IMG/VR virus record: IMGVR_UViG_3300021356_000007
Span: 1-64,000 of that record
Direction: 5' to 3' (one strand)
Source: a virus
DNA: 64,000 nucleotides
The notes under the pieces were generated by a model that ran no database searches, was not told where the DNA came from, and saw only the letters and a program-made list of their open reading frames with translations. Both the position numbers and the translations under genes were made by a program. This document shows positions 25,456-58,582 of the stretch, piece after piece (positions within the stretch are counted from its first letter, which is position 1; the number at the start of each line of letters is the position of its first letter).

Positions 25456-27425
25456 CAGAATTCACCTCTCAAGAATCCATCGAAGTAACCCATCTTCTTA
25501 CGAATCAAATCAATGTCGTTGACTACATCACCGCTTGTTCTTATCGGTGCTTGTTGTACAAGCCCTGTAACATCATCGCTTGGGGCAATGTTGAAGAAAG
25601 TTTGACCTCTCGGTAAAGCCCTCGCTTGTTGAAAAGCCATTTCTTCAGGAGATGCCTGTCGAGTTGGTAAAGCGGGTATAGCAGGCATTTGACCCGTAGG
25701 TTGTGGTATGCCCGCCATGTCACCCGGTACAACTCTTACTTGTTGAGGTCTTTGTTCAATTGCTGGTGCTGGCTGTACCGTTCCTTCTCCTACCATACCT
25801 TGAGAACCAGCCATATCGTTGAGTTCTCCACGGACAGTTGCACCCGGAGGTGCTAGTTGCTGCTGGGTGTATATCCTATCCTGCCAATGGTCGGGGGCTT
25901 GATGGTGTCCAAAATCAGGAACACTGTGTTCAAGATTGTCCTTTTCGTAGTCGGTAGGTATTTCTCCAAAGGTGAACCTTTCATGCCCTGTCTTTTCTAG
26001 TAACTTGTCGATTACTCCTTGAACCTTATCACGGTATTCTTCATCTACACCATGGCTGTCAATATTAGCATCTTCTTCTTCTGCCCTAAGTTGACCTAAC
26101 ACAGTCTGCAAAGCCTCATCTTGAGGAACGCCTTCATTCATGAGTTTACTAGCAGTGTGACTAATGTGTGCTACTATCTCTCCAGCCCTGTGATTAGCAC
26201 TTCTTGCAAACTGAGTGTCTCCTACAGCAGCACCACTAGCATGTTGTGCGTGTAACTTGTAAGTATCTTCATTGTGGTGAGAGCCTAGCCCTCTAACGAT
26301 ATTTCTGAATACAGCACCGACACCCCTGCCAGTTCCATCTGAATTTATACCGTGTGATTTATTTTGGAAAAGTAACCTAATCATAGCAGACCTAGATACA
26401 TCATTGAGTTCTTCAGGGCTTAATCCGTGGTCTATACCTTGCTCGTCAAAGAATGCTTGTAACTTCTCACCGTTAAATCCAGCACCTTGCCCTCTACCAC
26501 CTGCACCCATTCTTCTAAAAGCCGAATGGGGTAGGAAATGTGCAAGTTGGTGACCGTGTACTTCAGGGTGTCTTCTGTTTTCAGCAAGTGATTGTTGTTG
26601 TTCACCACTAAGATACATGTCAGGTAATTGACCTGTTTGCTGATAAGTCTTGAAATCTCTAGGGGCAATAGACTGAACTATACCTCCGCTAAGGCTGCCG
26701 GGCATCAATCTGTTATACTTGACATAATGCAGTTGCGATATATCTTTATCGTCAAGGTAAGTCCTCTTTTTCAGAACATCACCTAGTTCTTTATTCATGT
26801 GAATGAAGCCGCTGTCAATCCATCTTCCAGTAGCCCCACCTTTGACATTTCCTCTGTTCATAGAATAAGTAATCAGAGGTCTTGGTCCATTTTCGTATAA
26901 GGGTTCAGCACCTCTGACTCTTCTCATGTGCGTTGGAACATTGTTTTCATAGTGAGGACCAGCATGGACTTTTCGCCAAGCACTGCTTGAAAAATTAGGA
27001 AGGCTATGGTTAGTCTTCCCATCACCATGTACAGTATCGTGGTTAGCATTGTATTGGTCTATTGCCTCTTGTATCAAACCAGCGGTTTGAACTTGAGCCT
27101 CTCTCAACTTATCAGCATCTCCACTAGCCAATGCTTTAGGGAATATCCTTTGCATTAAGTCTCTGTGAACATAATCAATAGGATGTAATCCCCCATCTAG
27201 TAACTCGCCCGTTTCAGGGTGATGATTGAAAGGAGGGTGGTCGTGTTGCTTAGGGTCAGGATTAACACCTGCATCTGAAGGATTCCAAGAATGTCTGAGT
27301 TGATTGTTGAACATCAGTCCTGCTGATTTTCTGATAGTGTTATTGAACACTCTAAGAAAGTCGTTAGTACCAAAGAAGGTCTGCTTCTTAATATGACTGG
27401 TAGCAGGTAGATGGACTTTCCACAT
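25455..27425 (-). CDS. His-rich putative internal virion protein
   Basis: 656-aa ORF translationally coupled in late operon. Confidence 0.6.
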   Translation of the reverse strand: MWKVHLPATSHIKKQTFFGTNDFLRVFNNTIRKSAGLMFNNQLRHSWNPSDAGVNPDPKQHDHPPFNHHPETGELLDGGLHPIDYVHRDLMQRIFPKALASGDADKLREAQVQTAGLIQEAIDQYNANHDTVHGDGKTNHSLPNFSSSAWRKVHAGPHYENNVPTHMRRVRGAEPLYENGPRPLITYSMNRGNVKGGATGRWIDSGFIHMNKELGDVLKKRTYLDDKDISQLHYVKYNRLMPGSLSGGIVQSIAPRDFKTYQQTGQLPDMYLSGEQQQSLAENRRHPEVHGHQLAHFLPHSAFRRMGAGGRGQGAGFNGEKLQAFFDEQGIDHGLSPEELNDVSRSAMIRLLFQNKSHGINSDGTGRGVGAVFRNIVRGLGSHHNEDTYKLHAQHASGAAVGDTQFARSANHRAGEIVAHISHTASKLMNEGVPQDEALQTVLGQLRAEEEDANIDSHGVDEEYRDKVQGVIDKLLEKTGHERFTFGEIPTDYEKDNLEHSVPDFGHHQAPDHWQDRIYTQQQLAPPGATVRGELNDMAGSQGMVGEGTVQPAPAIEQRPQQVRVVPGDMAGIPQPTGQMPAIPALPTRQASPEEMAFQQARALPRGQTFFNIAPSDDVTGLVQQAPIRTSGDVVNDIDLIRKKMGYFDGFLRGEF

Positions 27426-28546
27426 CAGCCTACCCTCCCACTCCCTCTAGCAGCGAAAAGTAGACTTGGTGCGCCCCAGTTCTTTGGGTCATCCTCTAAG
27501 TTCTCTGTAGCACCTTCAGGTTTGGTAGTGCTGTCTTGTCCTTCACGATGTCCCGCTTCTCTGTTGTTACCATGACCTCCTTGCTTAGCAGCCTTTTTAC
27601 TCCCTTCTTTTCTCTCTAGGGCTTCTTTAAGTTGCCTGACAAGTCTTCTCATCTGATTGAATTGCATGTAGTCCATCTTTTTCTCGACTAACTCTATATC
27701 TTCTCTAATCAAAGACAAAGACTTTGCAAAGGACTTGCCCTTTTCTTTGATATTTCTTGGTTCTTTGATTTGTCCTGAGCCTCCTGATTTAGGGACCCTT
27801 GGGTTGTAATCAGTTTCAGCACCTATTCCGTGTCCTGAAGGTATCTGTGGTACATTACCCATCAATTTTCTACGAGCCTGAGTAGCCTGTTGCTGTCCAT
27901 ACCTTTGTGCATCGAGTCTTAGAGGTTGTTTGGTTTCAACACCTAAGTGAGTCCTGTGTACAGCAAGAGGGGCTCTATCTAATCCTCTCTTTTTCTGAGG
28001 ACTCATAGTCCTTGACTGTTGTTTAGAACGCCTACTGGTTGCTGATGCGATGTTAGAACCGCCCGGTTGAATCTCAAATTGAGGCTGACTCCAAGTCTTA
28101 TCCTTGGCAGTACCCATCTCATCTAACTTAGACTTCATCAAACTAGACCAAGCATCCTCCATAGGCTCACCTGTAGCGAGCATACCGCCCGGTGCAGGCA
28201 TAGTCCCAGTAGCAGCACCAAGACTGAGGTTACCCATATCGGGCATACCTGTCATAGCACCGAACTGCTGACCTTCATTGAATTGGTCGCTCATCTGTAA
28301 AGGGTCTTCTTCTTCCTCCATCATAGGAGGCATCATAGGAGGTTCTTGTTGAGGGATTGATATTTGTAGATGCGGTAGAGTTTCACTCATAACAGGCTTT
28401 TCCTTTTCAGCCTGCTTTTCGTCACGCACCTTTTCCATTTCTTCAGGGTCGCCATAACCATGCTTGTAGTCTTCATCTTTGGAATAACCAAGATTAGACT
28501 CACTTCTAGGTGAGTACATGCGTGTATCAGAACCTGTACTTGGCAT
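27425..28546 (-). CDS. Low-complexity putative internal head protein with TGEPMxxAWxxLxK motif
   Basis: GAGGTGA SD; acidic N-part, TGEPMEDAWSSLMK/S, then basic part. Confidence 0.65.
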   Translation of the reverse strand: MPSTGSDTRMYSPRSESNLGYSKDEDYKHGYGDPEEMEKVRDEKQAEKEKPVMSETLPHLQISIPQQEPPMMPPMMEEEEDPLQMSDQFNEGQQFGAMTGMPDMGNLSLGAATGTMPAPGGMLATGEPMEDAWSSLMKSKLDEMGTAKDKTWSQPQFEIQPGGSNIASATSRRSKQQSRTMSPQKKRGLDRAPLAVHRTHLGVETKQPLRLDAQRYGQQQATQARRKLMGNVPQIPSGHGIGAETDYNPRVPKSGGSGQIKEPRNIKEKGKSFAKSLSLIREDIELVEKKMDYMQFNQMRRLVRQLKEALERKEGSKKAAKQGGHGNNREAGHREGQDSTTKPEGATENLEDDPKNWGAPSLLFAARGSGRVG

Positions 28547-28557
28547 GTTTCTTCACC

Positions 28558-29316
28558 TCATAAAATGTCAAGGATGTCCTCATCCACTGTTCCATCAGCG
28601 TTGGCGAGTAGGCTGGCCTTGACTCGCTTCCATACATCGGTACTTTCTTTGCCTAATTCAACTTTGAGGACATTTATCGTATTATTGGCTACATTTGTAG
28701 ATGGTTCAGCCCATTTTTCTTGGTAAGCACTCAAATCCTTGAGTGTCTCTCTGACCTCTTTGTGGAGTCTTACCATGTCACTGATGACACCGTCATCGTG
28801 TATGTTGGTTTCTTCCATATACTGTGCTAACTTACCGTTCAGTCCTTGTACATTGTTCCTAAGAATATCAATTTCTTCGCCTACTTTGATAGCAACTACG
28901 GCTGCGGAACTCTTTCTAACTAGAGGCTGGAAGTGTTGCTTCATGTGTCTATACACTGAATCTTCACTGCACTCTAGTTCCGTGGCAATATCGTCACTGG
29001 TCCTTTCACCTTCAAAATATGCTACTTCCAATTCCTTTCGATTCTCGCTAGTGCATACTGCACATGAATGATTAGAAGTAGAATGATATTCACCTACATG
29101 ATTTTTCATGTGACGCTCTGCTGTGTTGGCTCTCCAGCCCATATCTTTATCCATTATTTGGGGGTTAGCGATACCGTCAATGATACTCTGCTCTAAAGCA
29201 TCACGGTCACCATGTTGACAAAAAGAACAACTTCTCTTTGTCTGACGAGTACCTCCCATACCATGTCGGAGGGGGCTGGTATGAATAACCTTTTTGAATG
29301 GGAAGGTTACCCTCAT
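28558..29316 (-). CDS. Terminase small subunit candidate: tandem C-x2-C...H-x3-H Zn/HTH repeats plus coiled coil (true start probably nearer 29260)
   Basis: CSFCQH...AERHMKNH and CAVCTS...VYRHMKQH duplicated; oligomerisation-type helices; upstream of TerL in same transcription unit. Confidence 0.55.
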   Translation of the reverse strand: MRVTFPFKKVIHTSPLRHGMGGTRQTKRSCSFCQHGDRDALEQSIIDGIANPQIMDKDMGWRANTAERHMKNHVGEYHSTSNHSCAVCTSENRKELEVAYFEGERTSDDIATELECSEDSVYRHMKQHFQPLVRKSSAAVVAIKVGEEIDILRNNVQGLNGKLAQYMEETNIHDDGVISDMVRLHKEVRETLKDLSAYQEKWAEPSTNVANNTINVLKVELGKESTDVWKRVKASLLANADGTVDEDILDIL

Positions 29317-29319
29317 TTT

Positions 29320-29631
29320 GTGAAACTGCCTAGAATTAAGCCCAAAATCATGGGTGTACCTGTTTCTATAGAAACTGCTCGTGGCTTGTCAAGAGCCTCT
29401 AAGGATATATTAAGAAAAAGAGTAGTCCCTGAAGAAATAAAGCAAGAAAGACTCGACATTTGTATGTCCTGTCCCAGTTGGAAAAACTACAGATGTATGG
29501 AATGTGGTTGTCAAATGCGTGTCAAGACTACACTAACATCGAGCAGATGCCCCAAAGGTAAATGGAAAGAGTACCTAGACTTCAGAAATACGGGAATAAA
29601 TACCAGTCAACATGAAGAAAGCACCGAATAA
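29320..29631 (+). CDS. Small Cys-rich Zn-binding protein (start uncertain)
   Basis: ERLDICMSCP...RCMECGCQM..KT.L....CPKGKW, a motif family common in marine viruses. Confidence 0.65.
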   Translation: MKLPRIKPKIMGVPVSIETARGLSRASKDILRKRVVPEEIKQERLDICMSCPSWKNYRCMECGCQMRVKTTLTSSRCPKGKWKEYLDFRNTGINTSQHEESTE

Positions 29632-29817
29632 TCCCAGCACAAGGTAAGCCATTGTATTACTAGCCATCTTGCCACCTGATGTCAGCAGTAAAACTGTGAG
29701 AGTGACTATTATTGTCAATAGTTGAACCATAACCATGTCAATGATTACACTTTTACGAGGTGCAAATATTTCCATAGCAGTCCCTGAAAAGCCAGCAATT
29801 GGTGTAAAATCCTTCAT
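29575..29817 (-). CDS. Two-TM small membrane protein (holin-like topology)
   Basis: Hydrophobic stretches VIIDMVMVQLLTIIVTLTVLLL and MAYLVLGLFGAFFMLTGIY; GAGGTGA SD. Confidence 0.7.
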   Translation of the reverse strand: MKDFTPIAGFSGTAMEIFAPRKSVIIDMVMVQLLTIIVTLTVLLLTSGGKMASNTMAYLVLGLFGAFFMLTGIYSRISEV

Positions 29818-29822
29818 CTATA

Positions 29823-30455
29823 TCACCTCGTACCCATAAAATTACCCATGAACTTACCCGCAGCAGAACCTGCCTTGTCCATCAGATTGTCATTAGCCAG
29901 TGCAGCACTCAAAGCCCCGCCCATCATAGATTGTTGAGCGAAAGCAGCAATCTGCTGTTGCTGCATCTCTGCGTTTTGAATACTCTGTTGACTTGCCATC
30001 TGTAAATTACTGAACTGACCTTTGACATTCTCTGCACTCATAGTCTGTAGACTATCAGGTAGAGAAGTTACATCCATTTTCATTGTCCCTTCTTTGTCGT
30101 TAATCACGAATTCGGCATTCTTTAGTATCTCAAGTACAGAAAAACTCACTAAATCGTTCATCATTTGTAAGAAAACAGCCATCTGAGCCCCTACTACGAA
30201 CCTATCAATAGGTGCAAGTGAGCGCATCATAGCCATTTGTATCTCCATTTCACTCGGAGGTTGTATAGGTTGCTGCATCATATTCGCTTGCATACCCATT
30301 CCGCCCATCATTCCGCCCACAAATGTATTCTGAGAAGCCTGTTGCATCATACCTTGTGGTGCGAATGGGTTCATTTGGGCAGCCATTGGGCTAGAATTAC
30401 CTTGTGCGCTGAGATTCAGTGCGCCGTTTTGCTGTTGTCCATTACCAAATATCAT
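29823..30455 (-). CDS. Q/M/G-rich hypothetical protein of GTPase operon
   Basis: GAGGTGA SD; low-complexity N-terminus, amphipathic C-terminal helix. Confidence 0.7.
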   Translation of the reverse strand: MIFGNGQQQNGALNLSAQGNSSPMAAQMNPFAPQGMMQQASQNTFVGGMMGGMGMQANMMQQPIQPPSEMEIQMAMMRSLAPIDRFVVGAQMAVFLQMMNDLVSFSVLEILKNAEFVINDKEGTMKMDVTSLPDSLQTMSAENVKGQFSNLQMASQQSIQNAEMQQQQIAAFAQQSMMGGALSAALANDNLMDKAGSAAGKFMGNFMGTR

Positions 30456-30466
30456 ATCTTTTCACC

Positions 30467-31480
30467 TCATACTGTGGATTGTGTAAATATACCTTGCTCT
30501 GTCTGTGGCAGGACATCCTGATTGATAACACCATTGGCATTTTCTTGGGGTAAACTCTGCGCTACACTAGGTTGAGGGACTTGATTTATACCCAATTGAG
30601 TGATAGCATCGGACAAAGTAGGGCTCATATTAGCCATTTCTTGTTGAAATAGCCTCAAATCGAACACAATCATAGTCACATCGTTGATTCCAGTCTCAGG
30701 ATTCTTGTAATGTAATAGGTTAATACCGTTATATGCCTTAGAATCCTTCTCTAATTGCATGAAAAATGGCTCATATTTCTTCAATAATTCAGGTGTATTG
30801 TCCTTCTTTTTGACTACTGCAATGGGTACAGCGACTGTAGAAACGCCCTTTTTCACCATTTCTTTCATGCCCATGCTAGTTTTATTGTGGTCTTTGTCTG
30901 CTTCAGACTCCCATTTGCACAATAAATGGTACAAATGTAGGTGTTCAGGGCAATATGTACCCTTCATTTTCCTACCATTAGTAACTTGTTCTCTTGCTAC
31001 AAAGGCTTCAGGGGCATTAGTTACAGGGTTTTTCCAATACATTTCCCACAAACTCTTACCTGAAACCTCATCTGTAATCTTAGCATAGAGATTATCATAC
31101 TTGATTAACTCTTCACAGTCACAACCATCAATCACACAAAGATTACTTTGTCTATTATATCTATATTTTCTACCCCAAATCCACCTTAGAGGACTGTACC
31201 ACTTACGCTTAGTAGGTGTCAAAAGCCTTCTCGCACTTCTGATGTCTTGTTTTCTTGCCTTTCTTGGGTCAGGGTGACGACTTGGGTAGAAATTCACCTT
31301 TGGAACTTCTATATTCTGCTTAGCAATTTCTTGCATACCTTGTTGAGCAGCCTGCATTTCGAGTAACTGTTCATGACTAGCATTACCCTGCTGGCTCAAA
31401 GCCATCATGTGCGCCTGACTCATATTAGCCAAATTCACATCCCCTTGTGGGACTCTTCCATATCCGCCTATCCTCATCAT
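30467..31480 (-). CDS. Hypothetical protein with Cys/His Zn site, GTPase operon
   Basis: AGGTGA SD; CVIDGCDC...YCPEH; basic-aromatic KRKWYSPLRWIWGRK patch. Confidence 0.7.
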   Translation of the reverse strand: MMRIGGYGRVPQGDVNLANMSQAHMMALSQQGNASHEQLLEMQAAQQGMQEIAKQNIEVPKVNFYPSRHPDPRKARKQDIRSARRLLTPTKRKWYSPLRWIWGRKYRYNRQSNLCVIDGCDCEELIKYDNLYAKITDEVSGKSLWEMYWKNPVTNAPEAFVAREQVTNGRKMKGTYCPEHLHLYHLLCKWESEADKDHNKTSMGMKEMVKKGVSTVAVPIAVVKKKDNTPELLKKYEPFFMQLEKDSKAYNGINLLHYKNPETGINDVTMIVFDLRLFQQEMANMSPTLSDAITQLGINQVPQPSVAQSLPQENANGVINQDVLPQTEQGIFTQSTV

Positions 31481-31488
31481 AATATCAC

Positions 31489-32205
31489 CTAACTTAGTAA
31501 CTCCATCATTGTATTTTCAACATTCCAGCCTATTCTTGTAGCCATCATTCCCCTCTTCGTAGGAACGCCCGCTTTTTGGAGGCGTACAAGGTCTTCTCTG
31601 AAGGGGTCGAACATCTTGTGTTCACCCAATCTTTGTTGCTGCCAAAGTATATTGGCTTGCTCATCCCACCATTCATCTGCTTTATTTGCAACCAACATAA
31701 TAGTCTTTGGAACATACTTTTTACCTCTCAATCTACTTTTAAAATTTCTATAACGATACTGCCTGTGGAGTATTGAATCTACGAGGAACTTAAAACCCCC
31801 CACTGCTTGTACTGCTGGGTCTCCACCTAATGTAGTTCTGTTATCAAATAAGAATATAATGGCTTCAACTTGTCTATTAACCATATCATCTATCCAAAGA
31901 TTCCAAAACCTTTCCTCACCTGCTATGTCAGAAGAATAAACTACTCTCTTGTCACCTTTCCAAGCAACTCTTTTTCTTGTAGGGTTTGGTAACAAGAATC
32001 TGTTTATACCCGGCACTTTGAAATGTTTAGTCCTTTCACTAAGAGGTATCTCTTCCATTTCGCCCGGTGTTGTCATGTAGCGGTCAAGTGTAGTCTTACC
32101 TACCATTGTCGGTCCGTACACCCCTACTCTTCTTGGCTTCCAGTAGTGGTAGAATTCCTTAGCGAACACCACTCCGCCAACTAAAGCACTACCACCCAAT
32201 GACAT
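31489..32205 (-). CDS. Ras-superfamily (Arf/Rab-like) small GTPase with hydrophobic N-terminal extension
   Basis: G1 GPTMVGKTT, G3 DIAGEERFWNLW, AIIFLFD, G4 VANKAD, G5-like MATRIGWNV. Confidence 0.85.
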   Translation of the reverse strand: MSLGGSALVGGVVFAKEFYHYWKPRRVGVYGPTMVGKTTLDRYMTTPGEMEEIPLSERTKHFKVPGINRFLLPNPTRKRVAWKGDKRVVYSSDIAGEERFWNLWIDDMVNRQVEAIIFLFDNRTTLGGDPAVQAVGGFKFLVDSILHRQYRYRNFKSRLRGKKYVPKTIMLVANKADEWWDEQANILWQQQRLGEHKMFDPFREDLVRLQKAGVPTKRGMMATRIGWNVENTMMELLS

Positions 32206-32206
32206 T

Positions 32207-32464
32207 TCAATTTCTCCAACTGAATATAGCGTCAGACCACTCTCTTAACTTTTCTTTGAGCCAGTCTCCAGTTGACTCCCATAAATTCCAATCAGTGTAA
32301 AACTCAAACGCACTGACTACAAACGCAGTACAAACAGAAAAAATGACGGTCCTAATCCAGCCCCACCCTCTTTCGTATGCTACATCAACCGTATTGGCTA
32401 TGTGCATACTCCTCAGTGTTTCTTCAACTGCGTCATCACTGGGGGTCTTGAAGATTCGACCCAT
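32207..32464 (-). CDS. Single-TM membrane protein
   Basis: WIRTVIFSVCTAFVVSAFEFY hydrophobic helix, Trp-rich amphipathic tail. Confidence 0.7.
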   Translation of the reverse strand: MGRIFKTPSDDAVEETLRSMHIANTVDVAYERGWGWIRTVIFSVCTAFVVSAFEFYTDWNLWESTGDWLKEKLREWSDAIFSWRN

Positions 32465-32470
32465 AAGTTA

Positions 32471-33025
32471 TCACTTCTCCTTTTTCTTGAATGTCCCATC
32501 TGCGTTTCTCTTTCTCTTAGCGTCTTTTTCATCATCAGTTTCTTCGAATGTTAAACCAAGTGACATAGGCTCTTTTGATACTGGTTGAGTTGCTGGTACA
32601 AAATCAGCAGTGCTAGTAGTAGGTGGATTCATCCTTTCTTGAATCCAAGGTGGAGTTTGACCGGGGTTTTGCTCAAGCCAGTTTAGTTCAGCCTCCAACT
32701 GTGCTTCTTGAAGTCTTAATTCCATGTCTTGTCTTCTACGGTCAAAGTTCATCTCCATACTTCTGTACCTTGTTTTTCTCTGTTTTTCCTGTGCGGCCAA
32801 TCTCGCTCTTTCATCCATACCTTGTTGGAAGAACATTTTGAAAAGATAGTACGCTACACCCTGAACAGCAAATGCTGCCATAGCATAAGTAATTCCGTTA
32901 ACTGTAGGGTCGTCTAATTTTAACCAGTATTCTGCATCGAAAACGGCTATTGCTATACCGATTGATACGGCTTGGGTGAGTATCAAACCCATCAATCTTA
33001 TTTCTGCTTGGTCTACATCTCTCAT
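32471..33025 (-). CDS. Two-TM coiled-coil membrane protein (start reassigned to MRDVD)
   Basis: TMs LMGLILTQAVSIGIAIAVF and GITYAMAAFAVQGVAYYLF followed by long charged coiled coil. Confidence 0.7.
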   Translation of the reverse strand: MRDVDQAEIRLMGLILTQAVSIGIAIAVFDAEYWLKLDDPTVNGITYAMAAFAVQGVAYYLFKMFFQQGMDERARLAAQEKQRKTRYRSMEMNFDRRRQDMELRLQEAQLEAELNWLEQNPGQTPPWIQERMNPPTTSTADFVPATQPVSKEPMSLGLTFEETDDEKDAKRKRNADGTFKKKEK

Positions 33026-33109
33026 TGTCTCTCTGCCACTCTGCAAAGTTATCCCTCTAACCTTCTGCAAGACCACTGCGTAAATAAAGGTATCACAAAA
33101 TTAGAAGGC

Positions 33110-33164: not shown

Positions 33165-34460
33165 TCAATCTTTTTTCTTTTCAGAATCAAGTTTTTCCCT
33201 CTTGCCATTCTTTGAAGGGCCCGGGCCTGCTTTAGAACCGATAACAATAACCATGCCATGTGCTGGCTTTTTGCTACCTTCTTTTTTGTTCAAATCTTCT
33301 TCACCTTTACCGTCAGCAGCGAACTTAGGGACTTTCTTGCCCTCATGCTCTACCATTTCCAGTTCTCCCTTAGCCGTACATCCCATTTTATTGACGCAGT
33401 TTTCTTTACCGCATCCGGGGCATTTAGCCTTAGACATTTCTTCATTCATCCCGTAAGGGCAGGTCATTTTACCGATGCACTCAGGTTTAGCGCATCCAGC
33501 GCACCTTGCTTTGTACATCATATCTTCAACTTGCTTCTTTATTTCTTCGCCTATATTGTTTGTAAACATATACTCACCTAATGATTTCCTAGTCCCGCCA
33601 TACTCTGCCTGTTGTTCGAAAGCAGAACCCTGATTCGGATTCCAAATCTCTCTATCAAGAACAGAACTACTCTGAACATTGGAAATATCACCCATACCTG
33701 CATTAGTCTGACCTAGACCAAATGTTGAACCTGAACCACCCCCACCAATCAAAGACGAAAGGTTTGTCCCTTGCCCGCCACCGCCACCACCGGGCGTATT
33801 ATTTTGCATATAATTCAGACCTGCCATACCGAGTCCTACTGCACCTGCACCCAAAGCACCAAGACCAGCCATTCTTCCAAGAGAAATAGACTCGTCTACT
33901 CCTTTAGCACCCCTTCCAATTTGACTGTAAGCACCTTGTCTGAAAGCACCCCTACGGGCAGCATCTGTTCCGGCTTCTCTTGCCATTCTTCGAGTATAAG
34001 GTTGGTTTCTTGCTAGTTCAAATAATCGAGCGTCTGCGTTAGCAGCAGTCACAGGAGGAAGTTGTCGGCTGACTGCATCAGCCTGCTCTCTTGCAATACG
34101 GTTTCTAGTAGCAGTTTCTGCTGCTTCTCTTGCTGCTGCTCTCTGTGAAGCAATTTGAGCCCCTCTTCTTCCAGCGAGTCTTCCCACTCCCTTAGCACCT
34201 AACTTAACTGCTGCACCTGCACCAAGACCTTGAGCCATTCCTGTACCAAACTCAAGTGCATTAGAACCAAAACTATCGTCACCTTCAGCGAGTTCCATAC
34301 CAATGAATGGGTCTGTGATTTGATTATCACGGACATTCTTATAACCTTGATAAGCACCATAGCCCAATAATGCCAATGGTATAAGCGGAAGTGCCTTGTT
34401 TACGGTGTCTTCTTTAACCACCGACCATGCTCGGTCAATCGGCGAAATAGATTCCGACAT
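33165..34460 (-). CDS. Putative ejected/internal virion protein with AWxxVK leader and Gly/Ala hydrophobic helices (start reassigned to MSESISPID)
   Basis: MSESISPIDRAWSVVK/ED; hydrophobic LPLIPLALLGYGAY and LGALGAGAVGLGMAGL; two CxxC-x3-C repeats. Confidence 0.65.
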   Translation of the reverse strand: MSESISPIDRAWSVVKEDTVNKALPLIPLALLGYGAYQGYKNVRDNQITDPFIGMELAEGDDSFGSNALEFGTGMAQGLGAGAAVKLGAKGVGRLAGRRGAQIASQRAAAREAAETATRNRIAREQADAVSRQLPPVTAANADARLFELARNQPYTRRMAREAGTDAARRGAFRQGAYSQIGRGAKGVDESISLGRMAGLGALGAGAVGLGMAGLNYMQNNTPGGGGGGQGTNLSSLIGGGGSGSTFGLGQTNAGMGDISNVQSSSVLDREIWNPNQGSAFEQQAEYGGTRKSLGEYMFTNNIGEEIKKQVEDMMYKARCAGCAKPECIGKMTCPYGMNEEMSKAKCPGCGKENCVNKMGCTAKGELEMVEHEGKKVPKFAADGKGEEDLNKKEGSKKPAHGMVIVIGSKAGPGPSKNGKREKLDSEKKKD

Positions 34461-34638
34461 GAATATCCCCATGCTGTTTGTTTTCATAAGCCTGTTGCAA
34501 GTAATGGTAACTTTCTGCGGCTTCAACAAGTAGGTTCATAGCCTCTATGCTACCGTCTTGAAGGTCTTGTATCTTACTCAAGTTGTATTCACTAACCTTG
34601 AGTAACTCTTTCAAAAGTGTGTTCCAAAAATCTTCCAA
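34435..34638 (-). CDS. Small hypothetical protein with FWxxLLK leader
   Basis: GAGGGA SD + TTG; MEDFWNTLLK/E. Confidence 0.5.
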   Translation of the reverse strand: MEDFWNTLLKELLKVSEYNLSKIQDLQDGSIEAMNLLVEAAESYHYLQQAYENKQHGDIHVGIYFAD

Positions 34639-34648: not shown

Positions 34649-35212
34649 CTACCTAACCAGTACTATATCTGATTTAAGAGTACCTCGTTCTTTGAAATGT
34701 CGGGCTCTGTTGCTATGAGGGTCTTCTGCTACCAAAGTGTGGTCTTTGGTGTGACTCATATCAGGTCCACCCTGTCCGTAAATACCTCTTTTCCTGCGCT
34801 CACGATTCAACTCTTCACGATACTTGACACGCTTAGGACTAGACTCATACTTCTTGTCATACTCCAACTTGTGCCTTTTGGCTTCAGGGCTGACAGGACT
34901 CTTGATAACCAAGACTCCTTTGACAATAGTAGGCTTACCGCCGACACCTTGTTTCTTAGCACGCTTTCTTTTGGTAGCAGCCTGCTTCTGACCGCTAGTC
35001 ATTTCACCACTGGTCTTGGGTGTTTTGCTGCTGACTCTCACACTTGGTCTACACTTTGGATAGCCTTTGCTTCCTTTCTTGGCTTTCGACCTACCACAAG
35101 GAGGGTGCTTACCATCCTTGTCTTTACGACTGACATCTACCCACTTTTCTTTGAACCATCTGTTGAGGTTCTTGACAACTAATGTGTCATGACAAGTGCA
35201 TCTATCGTTCAT
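34649..35212 (-). CDS. Highly basic two-part protein (putative internal DNA-binding protein; C-part HNH-like remnant)
   Basis: LNRWFKEKWVDV...CGRSKAKKG..YPKCRP basic domain, then VLVIK/S and KLEYDKKY...GPDMSH...SNRAR. Confidence 0.65.
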   Translation of the reverse strand: MNDRCTCHDTLVVKNLNRWFKEKWVDVSRKDKDGKHPPCGRSKAKKGSKGYPKCRPSVRVSSKTPKTSGEMTSGQKQAATKRKRAKKQGVGGKPTIVKGVLVIKSPVSPEAKRHKLEYDKKYESSPKRVKYREELNRERRKRGIYGQGGPDMSHTKDHTLVAEDPHSNRARHFKERGTLKSDIVLVR

Positions 35213-35415
35213 TTTTTACCCGCCCAAGCATCACATACATGGTCTGCTCGACACATGAAGTCGTACCATTCACAATAGCCCGTCATAGGGTCATCGGTCT
35301 TCGAGGAGTCCCACGCTTTACAATTACCGCACTTTTCAGAGCCAGTGGCTTTTCTATAATTAGGCGCATCCTCTTTGCCCTTAATTATAGCCCACGCTTC
35401 TTCGAGAGGTATCAT
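35209..35415 (-). CDS. HiPIP-like four-Cys small protein with AWxxIK leader
   Basis: MIPLEEAWAIIK/G; APNYR...CGNC..W...GYC........VCDAW spacing resembles high-potential iron-sulfur proteins. Confidence 0.55.
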   Translation of the reverse strand: MIPLEEAWAIIKGKEDAPNYRKATGSEKCGNCKAWDSSKTDDPMTGYCEWYDFMCRADHVCDAWAGKK

Positions 35416-35615
35416 TTCTTCTTCCCCTTTTTCTTACCACGGAACTTACCCTTACAGTATTGAACAGCCCAGCCATTTGCATAAGCAGATGGATAAACTT
35501 TGAATTTTCTTTTTGCTGCTGCTTTACCAGCAGGACAGAGTTTCTTTTCTAAAAAATCAAAAGCAGAGTCGATACCTATGCAATGTCCACAGTCGCACTC
35601 ACTCAACAGTTCCAC
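35412..35615 (-). CDS. Small basic protein with acidic leader
   Basis: SAFDFLEK/KLCPAGKAAAKRKFKVYPSAYANGWAVQYCKG. Confidence 0.6.
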   Translation of the reverse strand: MELLSECDCGHCIGIDSAFDFLEKKLCPAGKAAAKRKFKVYPSAYANGWAVQYCKGKFRGKKKGKKK

Positions 35616-35992
35616 CTCTTTAATGCCGCACCTTTAGGTGTTAATTTACCTTTTTTACTGGTTGGACCTTTAACTCCACTCATACGAGCACAGAATGATT
35701 TTCTCCTTTTCGATGCCTTGCTACCCCTTTTTAGTTTAGAAGGCTTCTTAGTGACAGGTCTTTTCAGATTTGCGCCCGTCTTACGCTTTGCTGCCGCACG
35801 ACCCTTAGCATTGAGTCCTCCAGTCTTGGCGTGTTTGTTAGGATTGTAACCGTGGAAAGGTTTTGACTTTTTCTTGGCTTTCATAACCGCAAGACTGAGT
35901 TCCATAGGACTACAGCAATCACAGAAATTGACATCCGACCAGTCGGTTTTACCTACAATGTCAGCCTCAGTCAACCATTCTATATCTGTCAT
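35603..35992 (-). CDS. Small highly basic protein with acidic leader (start reassigned to MTDIEW)
   Basis: ATGA overlap with upstream stop; LAVMK/A then GGLNAKGRAAAKR...RRKSFCARMSG...ALKRWNC. Confidence 0.65.
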   Translation of the reverse strand: MTDIEWLTEADIVGKTDWSDVNFCDCCSPMELSLAVMKAKKKSKPFHGYNPNKHAKTGGLNAKGRAAAKRKTGANLKRPVTKKPSKLKRGSKASKRRKSFCARMSGVKGPTSKKGKLTPKGAALKRWNC

Positions 35993-36813
35993 ACTAATCC
36001 CTTCAATAATCTCCAAGCCATATTCATCGGCTCGCCTGTTTGTATATCCCTTTCTTCGTCTCTTCTCCTTACTGCATCCCTAAACGCAGGTGGTAAATTA
36101 GCATATTTATCAAAAGGCTCAGGTGCAGGCGGAGGAGTTTGTAAATCTTCAAAGGTAGACGGTACATCTCTTGGGAAGAAATCTACCCTGTTAGGTAGCC
36201 CTTCGTGGATTCTTGAGTTGTTGTGTGTATCTTGCTCAGGAAGTATAGGGCTTGTCGTAGGTAAAACATGTATGTTTTGTCGAGTTTTATCATTTAGCAT
36301 ACCATGCCCTATAGTCTTGAGTTGCAACTTATCATTCTCATCTAAGTTAAAATGAGGAGTTACGGTATGACTCAGTCCCATTTGCTTTTCACTTTCGTCA
36401 AGTTTAGGGTCATCAGTTCTCATCACATCAAAACTCAGACTAGGTTCACGCTCATCTAGTCGCTCATCAGATGCAGGCTTCTTGAGTTTCATAGCCTCAA
36501 TTATCTCAGGATGATTGTTAGCCAAATCGTTAGCCATAAAGGAAAAGATGTCTGCTAAATTGAACTTATAGCCTTTCATACCTCTTTTCTTGAATGCATT
36601 CGGCAACTCTTGATTTTCATTGTATCTCTGACTTAATCGCTTTTTGTAATGCTCATGAGGGTTAGCGTTAACATGTTCAAGTGGTTTTCTACTCTTCACC
36701 CTGTCCATCATTCGTTGTGACAAATTGTCGTAATACTCTTCAGGGAGGTGATTAAGTAAAGTATAATCTTTGAGTAAAACCCAAGCCTGCTGTAGACTAT
36801 GGCTTTCGCTCAT
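35989..36813 (-). CDS. Putative internal head protein with AWxxLK motif at both ends
   Basis: MSESHSLQQAWVLLK/D ... TGEPMNMAWRLLK/GLV. Confidence 0.65.
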   Translation of the reverse strand: MSESHSLQQAWVLLKDYTLLNHLPEEYYDNLSQRMMDRVKSRKPLEHVNANPHEHYKKRLSQRYNENQELPNAFKKRGMKGYKFNLADIFSFMANDLANNHPEIIEAMKLKKPASDERLDEREPSLSFDVMRTDDPKLDESEKQMGLSHTVTPHFNLDENDKLQLKTIGHGMLNDKTRQNIHVLPTTSPILPEQDTHNNSRIHEGLPNRVDFFPRDVPSTFEDLQTPPPAPEPFDKYANLPPAFRDAVRRRDEERDIQTGEPMNMAWRLLKGLV

Positions 36814-37135: not shown

Positions 37136-38389
37136 TCAGGCTGACCTATCAATTTCACCCTGAACCTTAGAACCATCTTGGCGACCCATGTTCATTGCTG
37201 CCTGCATAAGTTGCTGTCTAGCAAATTGTTGTGCCTCCGGGCTAGATGGGTCAGCGAATGCTCTCATAGTTGGTGTATTTCTTAAGCCCGGACTTAGCAT
37301 TATTTCTTTTTCTTCAGCACTCATAGGTTGCCTTTGCATGTCATCCATTGCTTGTCTCCTTGCGCCAGTCATCCTTGGCTCGAATAATTTACGAGAAACT
37401 CTCTCAGGTTTGTCCTCTTCGACAGGTGCTTCTTGTATTTTAGAACCGCCCGGTGTCATCATACCTTCGAGCATTGCTCGGATTCTATCTTCTTGGCTCA
37501 TTTCTTGAGGTGCTTCTTCTTGTTCAGGTTGAATGAATCTAGTTGTCATACCGGATAGAGGGTCTTTTCCAAAACCTCCAGTCTTCATACCTTCGACATT
37601 GCTAAGTTTTGAAGCAGACCTTTGACGAGCAAATGGATTTCTTTGGACCCTGCCAGTCTTATCACTGACTACTGGCTGATTGAATTGGTCTGTTTGCATA
37701 CCAAGGTTCAGTAAATTTTGACCTGACCTAGCACCACCTCTAACATCGAACCTACCGCCTCTGCTACCTGAAACCATACGGTCAGCAGCAGATGTCATAC
37801 CTTCTCTACCTCTTGCTCTTTCAAGCGGAGTAGTGAAACTTTGTTCAGGGTCTACATCCATCATAGGGATAGTCTGTGTAGGGTGTCTCACTTCTAGTTG
37901 CCCTGTGTTTGGGTTCAAAGCCATACTCGTACCCATTTGGTCTACCACATCTTCTCTTAGAGGACTGATGTCTCTCTCGATAGCAGCGACACTTTGAGGG
38001 ATAGGGTCACCCCTGCCTCCTCCAAGGTTACCTAGAGGAACTGGAACGCTCGCTGTCATTTCACCGGGTCTTTCTACATCACGCTGTACTGCGTCACCTC
38101 TACCACTAAAGGTATCAGTCATCCCCTCTAGTTCAGCCCTTTGCTCAGGAGTAAGCATCTCCAAATCTTTACCTCTTAGTCTGTTGAGCATACCGCCCCT
38201 CATTGTCGCTACTGGGTTCAAAACTCTTGTAGCGATACCTTGACGATTATCTAAAGCACTGTCGCCCATGTATTCATCAATGTATTCGTTAGACGGCATA
38301 CCTGCAATAGCAGGGTGAACTGTACCGTATATACCCTGTGCGCCGGGTTGTGCTTTCAATGTAGTCCAAGCGTTTTCGAGTGCGCTCAT
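37136..38389 (-). CDS. Low-complexity putative internal head protein with AWxxLK leader
   Basis: MSALENAWTTLK/AQ; M/Q/R/G/P-rich, predicted largely disordered. Confidence 0.65.
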   Translation of the reverse strand: MSALENAWTTLKAQPGAQGIYGTVHPAIAGMPSNEYIDEYMGDSALDNRQGIATRVLNPVATMRGGMLNRLRGKDLEMLTPEQRAELEGMTDTFSGRGDAVQRDVERPGEMTASVPVPLGNLGGGRGDPIPQSVAAIERDISPLREDVVDQMGTSMALNPNTGQLEVRHPTQTIPMMDVDPEQSFTTPLERARGREGMTSAADRMVSGSRGGRFDVRGGARSGQNLLNLGMQTDQFNQPVVSDKTGRVQRNPFARQRSASKLSNVEGMKTGGFGKDPLSGMTTRFIQPEQEEAPQEMSQEDRIRAMLEGMMTPGGSKIQEAPVEEDKPERVSRKLFEPRMTGARRQAMDDMQRQPMSAEEKEIMLSPGLRNTPTMRAFADPSSPEAQQFARQQLMQAAMNMGRQDGSKVQGEIDRSA

Positions 38390-39243
38390 GAGGTGGGGAT
38401 AGCGAGACCACTAAAAAAAGTGTTGATTGATTTTGCAAAGTCAGTTGCTTTCCCCAGCATCTTCTCGTCTACCCCTGTTTCAAAGCCCCAAGCGTGTAGA
38501 TGGCTGACAAGAAGGGCAGTATCAAGATTAGCCCCGCTGCCCTCTGCGAAGGGACAACCACCCAATCCCCCGATGCTAGAATCAAATTGCCTGATACCGG
38601 AAAATAAGCCAGCCCTAACAAGCCTGATTGCCTGTTCTTCTGAGCCTTTATGGTGCAAATGCAGAGCCGGAGTTAGGTCTTCTTCGTATACAATAGAAGC
38701 CCAGTCCTTTACCTCTTGCTCAGTCGCAGCACCAACCGTATCGCTGAGAACTACAGTAGAGCCTAGCATCTTCGCATCTCTGATGCAAGACTTGATTTCT
38801 GACTCAGAAAAACTACCGCTATATGGACTACCAAACGCCATGCTTATGTATACCCTAACTAAATCCTTGGGGTAAGCGTTGAGCATCGTCTTGTACATCA
38901 GAACAATTTCGCTTCGAGTCTTACCCATGTTCTTCAGGTTGAATGTCTCACAAGGGCTGAACACGATGTTGATGTAGTCCATACCTAAATCCATAGCCCT
39001 GTCAAAGCCCCTCTGATTCATGACAAGCCCAGCACCTATGCCAGTCCAAACTTCCTCTGCATCAGCCATCTGCGGCAAGATTTTCGGGTGAGCGAAACTG
39101 ACTTCCTCAATCTCAGTCAGCCCGCTGTCATACAGAAGCCCTATGAGTTTCTGTTTGTCAGAGGTAGGGACAAAGTGCTTGATGTATTGCAACCCATCTC
39201 TAGGACCAACTTCGTAGACTGTGATTTTCATAAGACCGTTCAT
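38386..39243 (-). CDS. hmgL: Hydroxymethylglutaryl-CoA lyase (DRE-TIM metallolyase)
   Basis: YEVGPRDGLQ, EEVSFAHPK..PQMAD, LSDTVG, ALHLH, FDSSIGGLGGCPFAEGSGANLDT. Confidence 0.9.
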   Translation of the reverse strand: MNGLMKITVYEVGPRDGLQYIKHFVPTSDKQKLIGLLYDSGLTEIEEVSFAHPKILPQMADAEEVWTGIGAGLVMNQRGFDRAMDLGMDYINIVFSPCETFNLKNMGKTRSEIVLMYKTMLNAYPKDLVRVYISMAFGSPYSGSFSESEIKSCIRDAKMLGSTVVLSDTVGAATEQEVKDWASIVYEEDLTPALHLHHKGSEEQAIRLVRAGLFSGIRQFDSSIGGLGGCPFAEGSGANLDTALLVSHLHAWGFETGVDEKMLGKATDFAKSINTFFSGLAIPTS

Positions 39244-53302: not shown

Positions 53303-53309
53303 GAGACAA

Positions 53310-55001: not shown

Positions 55002-57107
55002 ATGGAGATAGTAACCACAGTAGTCTACAAGAATGACTACGGTGACGAGAGGCTGGGTCTCAAGTACAATTACAACCCTGACACAAATGAAATGCTCAAA
55101 GCCAATCTTAGATTTCCTAAGTTCGCTTGGGACAAAGACAGAAAGATGTGGAATGTTGAGAACAACAAATCAGTAATCAAACAACTGTGTGACACACTCG
55201 ATGCGATTGGTCGCTATGATACATCGGCAATCAGAGACTACGCAGAGGTGTACTCCACTGATGCACCCAGCAGAAGTGACTGCTGGACTAAAGTGAAGCG
55301 CACCCGTATGTATCTGAACTGGCCTTGGATTAACGACCCTGACTTGAGAGATGATGTCAGACTCGCAGTGAAGAGTATCAGTGGTAGCCGGTGGCACAAT
55401 GCGGAGAAAAGTTGGTCTATACCTACGCCACAGGCTACCACCCTACACGGACTGCTAGAGGACTTGTACCCACCACTGGCTGAAGCAATCATCAGCAACG
55501 AGGACATCAAGGAAGCAGTAGTCAAGAGCATTGAGCGTGTCAAGATAAGCGGTGCTAAGCAACTAGACGAAGCAACACAACTTGACATTGACAGCAGACT
55601 GGCTGGTAAATTCCCTGAAGGTCTTGACCTCTACCCGTTCCAAAAGGTAGCGGTGGCTTTCGCAGAGATGGCTGGCGGTAGGTGTTTGATTGGTGACGAG
55701 ATGGGCATTGGTAAAACAATCAGTGCTATCGGTTACTCAGCCTTGCACCCTGAAGCGAGACCAGCGATTGTTCTTTGTCCTTCGAATGTAAAGTTCAACT
55801 GGAAGAAGGAACTGAACAAGTGGTTACCTACTGAATCAGTGCATGTAGTGCAACCTGACAACGAACTGAAGGTTCAGTACTTCAAGGACATCGCTGAATC
55901 TCTAGGAGGTACAGGAGAACAAATCAGAACTGGCAACAATGCCAAGAAGTACATCAAGTCAAAGGGTTTCAATCCTATGACATACATACCCAAGTGTGAT
56001 TTCGTAGTTGTCAACTACGATGTGATTGAGAAGTTCAAGGACTCACTCATCGACATATCACCGAAACTAATCATACTCGATGAGAGCCACTACATCAAGA
56101 ACAGTGGCTCTAATAACAAACCTGTTCAGAGGACTGTGGCTACGCTAGAAGTGTGTAGTTACATTGAGAAGGTAATCGCACTATCAGGTACAGCGATTGC
56201 AAGTAGACCGAAGGAGTTCTTCAACACATTGAACCTACTCAACCCTGCTCTGTTCAGGAGTGAATGGGATTTCAAGCAGAGGTACTGTGACCCTTTCCAT
56301 AACGGAATCGGATGGGACTTCAATGGCGCATCCAATACCAAAGAACTGAATGAGAGAACAAGAGACCTGTGTATCAGGAGACTCAAGAGCGAAGTACTAC
56401 CTGAACTCCCACCAAAGACTAGAACATTCTTACCGATTGTACTGGACAAGGCTACTAGAAGCCCTTACGACTCAGCACAAGATGAGTGGGACAAGAAGAT
56501 TGACAGTTATTATCTCAACGGTCAACCCCTACCAGCAGGTACGATGCTGAACATGATTAACGACTTGCGTCACATGTGCGGTCACATCAAAGTCAATTAC
56601 GCAGTTGGTTGGATTAACCAGTACCGTGAACAAACAGGTAAGCCGATTGTAGTATTCACGCATCACTGAGATGTTCTCAGTCGTTTGGCTGAGAAGATGA
56701 GCAATGTCAAAACCATCACAGGTGACACACCTTCGCACACTAGACAGGAGATAGTCGATGACTTCCAAGCAGGCAACATCGGTGTACTCATCTGTAACAC
56801 AGTCGCAGCGAAGGAAGGTATCACACTCACTAGAGCAGACACAGTTCTGTTCCTAGAGCGTGAATGGACTCCTACTGACGAAGAACAAGCAGAGGACAGA
56901 GTGTATCGTATTGGGCAAGAGAGCCAGCATGTACACGCTGTCTATCTGTCATGCGAAGGGACAATTGATGAACACTTTGACAGAGTCATTGAGTCTAAGA
57001 GAGCAGTAGTCAAAGCAGTGCTGGATGGCGGAGATGTAGAACAGCGAAAGGGATTGGTCGCCCAACTTGTCAAGCGACTACAACAAGAGAGAGGTTGGAA
57101 GATATGA
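55002..57107 (+). pseudogene. SNF2/SMARCAL1-like helicase with two HARP-like domains, interrupted by one in-frame TGA (56667-56669)
   Basis: LYPFQ, GDEMGIGKT, DESH, LSGT, IRRLKSEVLPELPPK; VVFTHH-TGA-DVL continues in frame into EGITLT...WTP...QAEDRVYRIGQ. Confidence 0.8.
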
Positions 57108-57301
57108 GAGAGAATTGGAATGGTAGAACACAAGAGATACACAAGGACATGATTATGTACATCATGGACTGTTATACCCACAGAAGAGAAGACAGAGAAC
57201 ACTTCATGGATATGAGAGACATCAGTAAAGAACTAGAAGAATCCCTGTGGTGGGAATTGGCTCATCTTGTCGCAAAGAAGTTTAACATAAAGGGTGACTG
57301 A
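57104..57301 (+). CDS. Small hypothetical protein
   Basis: ATGA overlap with helicase stop. Confidence 0.55.
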   Translation: MRENWNGRTQEIHKDMIMYIMDCYTHRREDREHFMDMRDISKELEESLWWELAHLVAKKFNIKGD

Positions 57302-57488
57302 AATGAAGAGAATAACGAAACACACTAAGCAATTAGTATGGCACATATTGAGTGAAGGGATGGATAGAGAATGCCCGTCTTTACTAGAGATAGCAAACCA
57401 TGAATGGGAATGCGAGACAAACAGACCATACACCATGGAAGATTACTGGGATGCTTACTATTGGATTCTCAAGAAGGTAGGTAATTGA
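57294..57488 (+). CDS. Small hypothetical protein
   Basis: ORF in operon; start uncertain. Confidence 0.5.
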   Translation: MTEMKRITKHTKQLVWHILSEGMDRECPSLLEIANHEWECETNRPYTMEDYWDAYYWILKKVGN

Positions 57489-57489
57489 C

Positions 57490-57819
57490 ATGGGTATCGG
57501 AGTAGAATATATTCAAGACCACAACCAAGAATACTGGTACGACAATCTCTTAGGAATGCTCAAGATGGTAGACCAAATTATCAGAATCTACGGTGATGAC
57601 GAAGAGACATTCAGAGAGCGTATCAGTGACTACATGTGGGAATTAGTCGTCAGGAATCTTGACGCTGATACCAAAGCAAGACATGACGGCGAGTTCGAGA
57701 GGTGCGGTACATTCCCTAAGTTCAAGGGCGAGCCGGGCATCAGTCATCTGATTGCTGAGGCTTACCCTAGAGAGAATCCACTCAAGCCTCAAGACCTAGA
57801 AGACCAAGAATCCGATTGA
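57490..57819 (+). CDS. Hypothetical protein
   Basis: AGGTAGGT SD-like, 109 aa. Confidence 0.6.
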   Translation: MGIGVEYIQDHNQEYWYDNLLGMLKMVDQIIRIYGDDEETFRERISDYMWELVVRNLDADTKARHDGEFERCGTFPKFKGEPGISHLIAEAYPRENPLKPQDLEDQESD

Positions 57820-58582
57820 GTTCGGTTTGCTGGTTACTGACACGGTCAGACAAATCTAGTTCTTGTTGTGCAGTCATTGGTACTTCAGAATCGAACACTG
57901 GGTCAACGAAGTCTTCAAATGACTGTGCATCTATTTGTCTAGCGAATGGCTGTAACTGAGCGTCAGTTAATTCATAGTCAATCCCATACCTGCGAGGGTC
58001 TTTTCTAGCCAACCTAGAAGCCATCTGAGCGACTGGGTCTTTTGGGTGAGCAGCACCATAGAACATAGGGTCATTGAATAAAGCGTGTCCTTCTATGGGT
58101 CTACCAGTAACCTGACTCGCAGTCAATGCCGTGGGTCGGTCTACTGCCATCCAGTTAGGAGGCTTTGCATCTGCTACGCCGGTAGCCTCTGCTAGGGGTA
58201 TGGCATGGTGTATGGATGTAGCGAGTGTTCTACCTCTGTCTGAGTCAGCCTTTGGATTACCTGATTCGGCAAATGGTCTGCCTCTTATCTGTTGAGATAA
58301 AATAGGCGTACCACGACCTGACATAAATTGTTGAGCCTCCGGTGGCAATTCATAAGTCTGCGCTATTGGTGTCTGTTCAACAAAGATGTCCGGCATCAAA
58401 CGAGCCAACTGGCTCGCAAGGTACATGTCACTCAATGTATTACCGTGACCTACCTTAGTAACATCAGGATTACCTTCTTGACCGAACACCATCTGATTCA
58501 TCCCCTGCCCTATCCGAACACCTTCGGAGGGTTGGAAGACAGCCTTGAGCAATAACCATGCTCTCTCAAATGGGCTGTTCAT
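57782..58582 (-). CDS. Protein-kinase-like protein with AWxxLK leader, inverted within early region
   Basis: MNSPFERAWLLLK/A; IGQGMNQMVF (Gly loop), VTKV, VADAKPPNW (catalytic DxKxxN), LFNDP (DFG-position Asp). Confidence 0.6.
   Translation of the reverse strand: MNSPFERAWLLLKAVFQPSEGVRIGQGMNQMVFGQEGNPDVTKVGHGNTLSDMYLASQLARLMPDIFVEQTPIAQTYELPPEAQQFMSGRGTPILSQQIRGRPFAESGNPKADSDRGRTLATSIHHAIPLAEATGVADAKPPNWMAVDRPTALTASQVTGRPIEGHALFNDPMFYGAAHPKDPVAQMASRLARKDPRRYGIDYELTDAQLQPFARQIDAQSFEDFVDPVFDSEVPMTAQQELDLSDRVSNQQTELNRILGLLGLEA

Follow-up and report, generated by a model that had tools for sequence, protein, structure and literature searches.

A short peptide that ends in an invariant lysine recurs on otherwise unrelated proteins encoded on the head-gene strand of IMG/VR virus record IMGVR_UViG_3300021356_000007, the 91,888-bp genome of a tailed archaeal virus of the magrovirus lineage, of which the first 64 kb (64,000 nucleotides, positions 1 to 64,000; hereafter the window) was analysed. 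We put at roughly 55% the probability that this peptide is an address-and-cut tag that resembles the capsid-targeting sequence (CTS) of bacteriophage T4 and is served, in an archaeal virus, by an HK97-type protease cutting after the lysine. An earlier note on this DNA had listed nine instances of such a tag and proposed that it loads diverse proteins into the head for injection into an archaeal host.

The structural module of a tailed virus occupies the minus strand of the window from 1 to ~39 kb (PHROGs), and small early genes lie on the plus strand from 40 kb onward. A search of the open reading frames (ORFs) of the whole genome with the regular expression A-W-x-x-[LIVM]-(x)-K finds seven strong tag sites in real ORFs, all seven on the minus, head-gene strand, as the earlier note had claimed, and all in ORFs that are conserved in relatives; five are no more than ~10 residues from a likely start codon, one is internal and one stands three residues before a stop codon. 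The remaining 28 kb of the genome beyond the window yields zero matches. Across 2000 residue shuffles of the window's ORF set, matches averaged 0.37 and never exceeded 4, versus 6 observed in the set, and a six-frame control gave only two matches in non-coding frames. Comparison of the tagged protein bodies with each other by BLASTP detects no similarity outside the tag, so that their description as unrelated holds. The codons of the tag vary synonymously from copy to copy, which indicates selection on the peptide rather than on the DNA.

N-terminal tags on the minus strand of the window are carried by five proteins: a 417-residue ORF at 37136-38389 (M-S-A-L-E-N-A-W-T-T-L-K at 38354-38389, scoring 20.2 bits against a position-specific scoring matrix (PSSM) of the full tag and kept in the homologues of cluster 6), the body of which looks disordered and is Met-, Gly- and Arg-rich; a 274-residue ORF at 35989-36813 (tag at 36769-36813, 19.5 bits, kept in the homologues of cluster 7); a 68-residue Cys-rich ORF at 35209-35415 (tag at 35380-35415, with A7, W8 and K12 invariant in 12 homologues); a 431-residue ORF at 33165-34460, its start assigned to the Met at 34460 (tag at 34413-34460, 23.1 bits, N-terminal in 14 of 14 loci of cluster 3); and a protein-kinase-like ORF at 57782-58582 (tag at 58544-58582, 30.8 bits, invariant in 22 aligned homologues). 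The 274-residue protein also bears the C-terminal copy (T-G-E-P-M-N-M-A-W-R-L-L-K at 36001-36039, 25.6 bits), which is followed by three residues and a stop codon and behind which, in some relatives, another module continues in frame. The internal copy (T-G-E-P-M-E-D-A-W-S-S-L-M-K at 28133-28174 of ORF 27425-28546; cluster 0, 117 loci) precedes a conserved basic module of 235 residues. Seven of the nine instances listed earlier are therefore exact copies on the minus strand within conserved ORFs, whereas E-D-F-W-N-T-L-L-K (34609-34638, minus strand), a site in the conserved ORF 34435-34638, is not kept as a tag in homologues, and I-D-S-A-F-D-F-L-E-K (35544-35573, minus strand), in ORF 35412-35615, is a weaker variant. 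The latter motif is conserved, has a Cys-rich stretch in front and contains A-W in some relatives; it could be a tag, or else belong to the fold of the protein.

Degenerate copies, also on the minus strand, mark boundaries at which relatives have the complete tag. The sequence S-P-M-E-L-S-L-A-V-M-K (35879-35911) before the DUF6321 module of ORF 35603-35992 corresponds to a canonical tag at exactly the same boundary in relatives (cluster 10), and the internal boundary G-V-L-V-I-K (34901-34921) of ORF 34649-35212 corresponds to a full internal tag (cluster 1, loci L095 and L096). A further variant, M-K-P-R-F-E-Q-A followed by three residues and A-Y-E-L-L-K (19161-19211, minus strand, 11 bits), begins a conserved 130-residue gene of the head module at 18819-19211; because relatives have stop codons upstream of Met35, the longer ORF call of 18819-19313 is probably wrong, and the gene encodes ~130 residues with the tag-like leader at its start at 19211.

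Related viruses possess the same peptide in large numbers. Its consensus over ~240 related IMG/VR contigs is M-x-[PA]-[FM]-[DE]-x-A-W-x-[LVI]-L-K, and conservation ends at the lysine: the logo of 181 unique N-terminal cases, M(-6)-x-[P 0.53/A 0.34]-[F 0.64/M/I]-[D 0.45/E 0.37]-x-A-W-x-[L/V/I]-L-K, contains more than 4 bits of information at the lysine, ~1 bit at the next residue and ~0.4 bit beyond, and internal copies read [TS]-G-E-P-[MI]-x-x-A-W-S-x-L-[LM]-K. Within 80 related loci around the GTPase gene (1.36 Mb), 388 A-W tags are on the head-gene strand versus 21 on the opposite strand; those in ORFs of at least 40 residues (n = 379) comprise 222 N-terminal, 142 internal and 15 C-terminal copies. 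A scan of IMG/VR with the exact pattern identified at least 120 matching stretches; single loci contain as many as 13 tags within 11 kb, without exception on one strand, and 74 of the 80 such loci examined have genes in common with this genome. Two further near-complete genomes (102 and 100 kb) carry 8 and 13 tags on the head-gene strand, adjoining the head genes; across the three whole genomes (7, 8 and 13 tags) every tag is on that strand and beside head genes, except for the position of the kinase gene. The earlier note had expected late-strand genes only, with diverse cargo, in related genomes; in the loci analysed the head-gene strand is overwhelmingly preferred, and the cargo forms 121 clusters. 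The tag was not found described in the searched literature on magroviruses or archaeal tailed viruses.

The segments behind the tag fall into 121 sequence-unrelated BLASTP clusters, a number that, unlike the member counts of the clusters, is not inflated by overlapping loci. In nine clusters, of which DUF6321 is one, one and the same module is found in some cases as a separate gene headed by an N-terminal tag and in others behind an internal tag of a longer ORF, and homology begins directly after the tag lysine in the stand-alone and the fused forms. Homologues of ORF 27425-28546 have one to three internal tags, with differing modules inserted between them. Since the same modules start behind the lysine whether fused or split, the tag is, judged from these alignments, a module delimiter of which the lysine is the boundary; and if it works in all the places where it occurs, at either end of a protein and internally, free fusion, splitting and swapping of cargo genes would be possible. 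The portability attributed to the tag extends to at least 121 unrelated modules in these three positions.

The lysine itself matches sites at which the head protease of the virus appears to act. S78 proteases are prohead-resident enzymes, and HK97 gp4, the founding member, cuts off the delta domain of the capsid protein after Lys103. The head maturation protease of this genome (11618-13012, minus strand; Pfam Peptidase_S78 at residues 32-184, and PHROGs) is encoded beside the gene of the major capsid protein (MCP; 10478-11605, minus strand; PHROGs), and its protease domain is fused to a C-terminal half of 280 residues that is acidic, coiled and scaffold-like. Alignment with divergent magroviruses (MCP 64-66% identical) and with the haloviruses HVTV-1, HCTV-1 and HCTV-5 reveals three domain boundaries of the head proteins at which a lysine, preceded by two or three hydrophobic residues, is invariant: the end of the short propeptide just before the protease fold, with a putative cut after K29 (12926-12946, minus strand; I-S-I-V-K here, D-F-L-L-K in other magroviruses, L-P-V-F-K in HVTV-1); the junction of protease and scaffold, with a putative cut after K182 (12467-12490, minus strand; F-R-I-L-K here, [FY]-T-I-L-K in other magroviruses, V-V-S-K in HVTV-1); and the end of the 34-residue N-terminal extension of the MCP, with a putative maturation cut after K34 (11504-11527, minus strand; E-L-L-K then A-D here, M-S-K then A-D in HVTV-1), just before which the BLAST match of the MCP to halovirus capsid proteins begins. 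From these boundaries we infer a preference of the magrovirus protease for cutting after hydrophobic-Leu-Lys, a type of site in which the tags would also end, in keeping with the earlier suggestion that the tag ends in a putative protease lysine.

The Methanofastidiosa virus vir519 (BK063666.1; loci L398 and L400) has Gln, Asn and Asn at the three aligned boundary positions. Three sites that change together are expected of the P1 residue of a single protease with shifted specificity, which suggests a different P1 preference for the S78 protease of vir519; no shared N-terminal tag was seen among the vir519 genes. Scores against the PSSM of the full tag are 13-31 bits for the seven tags, 11 for the head-module variant and less than 8, below threshold, for the MCP and protease sites, so the tag appears to be more than a cleavage site: its P-F-[DE]-x-A-W part is, on this comparison, extra information beyond what the protease needs at its other sites.

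The tagged proteins of the window include basic DUF5872 and DUF6321 proteins and long proteins with low-complexity-looking sequence. Pfam gave almost no matches for the window's tagged proteins and for two sets of 20 and 118 cargo representatives; among the 118 cluster representatives only six match (a NUDIX hydrolase, an HD phosphohydrolase, three DnaJ-type zinc fingers and DUF6321). The NUDIX hydrolase, with an intact Nudix box (L101:1414-1968 of a relative; Pfam E = 4e-22), and the HD phosphohydrolase (L148:976-1404 of a relative; Pfam) each have the tag at the N-terminus, its lysine no more than ~10 residues from the rest of the protein.

The description of the 57782-58582 product as kinase-like is supported. 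Among 36 homologues found, the 22 aligned (41-89% identical) have A8, W9, L12 and K13 invariant and share, as read by eye, a Gly-rich loop, a V-T-K-V-G motif and a D-x-K-P-x-N loop. The top Foldseek matches of its AlphaFold2 model are all kinases (AceK, Rio2, WaaP and others), with E-values down to 5e-5 and TM-scores of just 0.3-0.4, and its nearest named Atlas clusters, which serve as leads only, are likewise all kinases, including a phage T7 kinase family and Kinase-PolyVal. The model, the one confident structure model of a tagged protein, has a mean predicted local distance difference test score (pLDDT) of 90.5, a predicted TM-score of 0.88 and a body above 90. In it the tag is predicted to form a short helix (residues 4-12) unpacked from the body, which gives some support to the proposal of an amphipathic-helix label, although the pLDDT of the helix is just ~54. 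The label "HiPIP-like" for the Cys-rich protein of 35209-35415 is not supported: Pfam gave no match to its 68 residues, and the pLDDT of its AlphaFold2 model (49) is too low for a fold search. This tagged gene lies between two halves of DUF5872, with its start and stop codons overlapping those of its neighbours: ORF 35412-35615 matches profile positions 9-43 (the N-terminal part) and ORF 34649-35212 positions 55-114 (the C-terminal part). From the sequence layout, it looks as if either a tagged cassette was inserted or the DUF5872 gene underwent fission.

The genome belongs to the magrovirus lineage, viruses of Poseidoniales: its size (about 90-100 kb is typical), MCP, marine relatives and Poseidoniales link all fit. 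Among deposited phage records the MCP matches only haloarchaeal siphoviruses (HVTV-1, 34.7% identical; HCTV-5; HCTV-1) and two methanogen-assigned viruses, and marine relatives in IMG/VR number in the hundreds (292 terminase, 206 GTPase and at least 599 capsid matches). Both the level of identity and the pattern of matches agree with those published for the magroviruses of Marine Group II archaea, whose capsid proteins are 33% identical to those of haloviruses (PMC5434244); together with the marine relatives they are the grounds for the assignment. A scan of 596 Gb of prokaryote genomes with the tag pattern gave 29 single hits versus an estimated ~13 expected by chance, most of them in antisense frames of conserved bacterial genes. 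The cellular hit that is most clearly genuine is a 106-kb contig, CACGHY010000002.1 (L378), of the Poseidoniales single-cell genome AG-422-I20, with three tags in 8 kb and a magrovirus capsid gene (L393) 66% identical to that of the window; this is likely to be a magrovirus captured inside its host cell, and as such would be direct evidence of the host link. An archaeal host, as proposed earlier, is accordingly indicated both by the MCP, ~34% identical to haloarchaeal siphovirus capsid proteins, and by this relative. Because the cellular scan is near chance level, a host sorting signal was rejected as an explanation of the tag.

On the reading that we favour, an amphipathic tag helix would dock newly made cargo onto the assembling procapsid, candidate docking partners being the protease-fused scaffold domain, the substrate groove of the S78 protease itself and the inner face of the MCP. 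The S78 (HK97-type) protease would then cut after the invariant lysine during maturation, as it apparently does at the end of its own propeptide, where protease and scaffold join, and in the MCP, and cutting would free the mature cargo and split fused ORFs into modules. The cargo, which would range from basic DUF5872/DUF6321 proteins and numerous disordered ORFans to a protein kinase and, in relatives, NUDIX and HD hydrolases, would stay with the DNA and enter the Poseidoniales host at infection. Most tags are N-terminal leaders of 12 residues, and because cutting would set free nothing but the leader, a role that precedes its removal is suggested. The chances are about even that this amounts to programmable delivery, in which a 12-residue helix takes proteins to the procapsid, the S78 protease releases them after the lysine, and kinase, NUDIX and HD enzymes with more than 100 ORFan families are injected into Poseidoniales; if true, it would provide both S78 protease systems and archaeal viruses with their first example of a capsid-targeting tag.

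Several points weigh against such a role. Packaging, cleavage and injection are all carried over from T4 by analogy, and no capsid-targeting peptide was found described for any HK97-type (S78) protease system. The MCP and protease sites share just the last three residues with the tag and have no A-W, and the structural half of HVTV-1 (47 kb) contains no A-W..L-K tags despite a homologous protease and MCP. The kinase gene is the sole late-strand gene within the early arm, and its homologues are in none of the head-side loci examined. The C-terminal tail of the scaffold, N-M-D-W-S-E-V-H-R, resembles the tag weakly, being Trp-centred and amphipathic, with no clear register and with variation among relatives. 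Some genomes hold a dozen tagged ORFs of up to ~400 residues, which may strain the volume of the capsid.

An unlikely but serious alternative is that the peptide is a processing signal only, by which the viral protease splits fusions and trims leaders with no capsid loading, the products perhaps acting in the cytoplasm, as kinase, NUDIX and HD enzymes could. The internal tags that delimit modules in fused ORFs, the modules that begin directly behind the lysine and the match of this lysine to the putative protease sites would all follow from such a signal. It accounts less well for the 222 of 379 tags that open the protein, spanning 12 residues between Met and Lys, where cutting would free the tag alone; moreover, S78 proteases are known as residents of the prohead, and the ten conserved residues of the tag exceed what the MCP and protease sites need. 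Somewhat less probable is a docking helix that stays uncleaved and binds another hub unrelated to the capsid, a viral or host factor in the infected cell such as the nearby small-GTPase and membrane-protein operon. Tagged genes do flank the conserved GTPase operon (29575-33076), the tag also stands at C-termini and internally, and the single confident model shows its predicted helix unattached to the body; but conservation stops sharply at the lysine, which is the module boundary, as a scissile bond predicts and a docking helix does not. This abrupt end argues for cleavage and against a retained peptide of the encapsulin type. The match of the last tag residues to the head-protein boundaries and the near-chance level of tag hits in cellular genomes also speak against a docking hub.

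We give almost no credence to the idea that the tag is a remnant of shared ancestry, or a repeat at the level of DNA such as a recombination site or translation signal, with no peptide function. Several tagged genes are adjacent, and variable modules are flanked by tags, at which recombination could reshuffle the modules; yet the bodies are without similarity, the tag codons vary synonymously, and A, W, L and K are invariant where the bodies are only 39-50% identical. Tail, portal and capsid genes on the same strand are without the tag, which is therefore not a general late-gene start signal; a late-gene start signal and a DNA-level repeat were both rejected in view of these untagged genes and the synonymous codon variation.

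In the surface ocean, magroviruses rank among the most abundant viruses of archaea, and ORFans make up most of their genes. Should the tag mark head cargo, the proteins that reach the inside of the host first could be recognised by a simple sequence rule, and these would form a fast-changing arsenal of more than 100 families, enzymes included, offering a handle on infection in an uncultured virus-host pair. The principle of capsid targeting would extend from T4-type to HK97-type proteases and to archaeal viruses, and a short natural tag would be at hand for loading proteins into HK97-fold shells. A cut after lysine is invisible in tryptic digests, and existing viral metaproteomes may have missed such cuts.

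Other features of the window include, on the minus strand, the large terminase (23053-24534; PHROGs) and the portal (19977-21740; PHROGs). Between the portal region and the protease, a 1929-residue ORF (13022-18811) occupies the place of the large head-associated multi-domain proteins of haloviruses; the one Pfam signal in it is a sub-threshold match (E = 9e-4) of residues 1511-1610 to the adenylation domain of ATP-dependent DNA ligase. The late-strand block is headed by an untagged HMGL-like gene (38386-39243; pyruvate carboxyltransferase / HMG-CoA lyase family, Pfam E = 7e-18), which may be an auxiliary metabolic gene. On the plus strand at 43-54 kb, many small early ORFs end in acidic tails (such as G-D-E-E-E or W-G-D-D-E-E), because the stop codon overlaps the next start behind a purine-rich ribosome-binding stretch, and four of these ORFs (50753, 50981, 51226 and 52957) start with an identical peptide, M-I-D-T-D-K-Y-E.

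Parallels to the proposed system are found in several known ones. HK97 maturation shares with it the Peptidase_S78 domain and lysine at the presumptive P1 position of the MCP, propeptide and junction sites; it differs in that the magrovirus protease is fused to a scaffold-like domain and the N-terminal extension of the magrovirus MCP is only 34 residues, and HK97 is not known to process a set of tagged cargo proteins. Encapsulin cargo-loading peptides are short, usually C-terminal, bind the inner face of an HK97-fold shell and are not cleaved. They resemble the magrovirus tag, if it functions as proposed, in that a short portable peptide at a terminus addresses unrelated cargo to an HK97-fold lumen, and differ from it in being uncleaved, in their consensus and in serving cellular compartments. 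In giant phages (SPN3US and the phiKZ group), many head-internal proteins are cut by the prohead protease and ejected into the host (PMC5694885, PMC7411985). The likeness there is a short cut consensus on many head-internal proteins that are later ejected, as would be the case for magroviruses; the differences are a T4-type protease, a motif other than the putative lysine, propeptides that are long where the magrovirus tag is a uniform 12-mer, and hosts that are bacteria.

An established parallel is the T4 CTS, which is found on IPI-III and Alt and is removed by the prohead protease gp21 (PMC3012670; PMC9958956). The internal proteins of T-even phages are highly diverse, with only the CTS conserved; the CTS directs them to the scaffolding core and is able to bring foreign proteins into heads (PMC3012670). 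As in T4, a peptide of ~10-12 residues is located at the N-terminus of diverse, fast-changing and otherwise unrelated proteins that have only this peptide in common, their genes lie beside the head genes, and the set of cargo is polymorphic between related viruses; the peptide may also, like the CTS, end in the cutting motif of the head protease. Unlike T4, the magrovirus has an archaeal host, a tag that also serves as an internal and C-terminal delimiter in fused multi-module ORFs, and far more cargo families (at least 121 in the sampled contigs); loading, which has been tested for T4, is putative in the magrovirus. The magrovirus protease is a Peptidase_S78 rather than an enzyme of the gp21 / herpesvirus assemblin type, and its putative cut is after Lys where that of T4 is after Glu. 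Because protease family and cutting residue both differ, the tag is placed outside the T4 lineage, and the odds are slightly better than even that it nevertheless works as the T4 CTS does.

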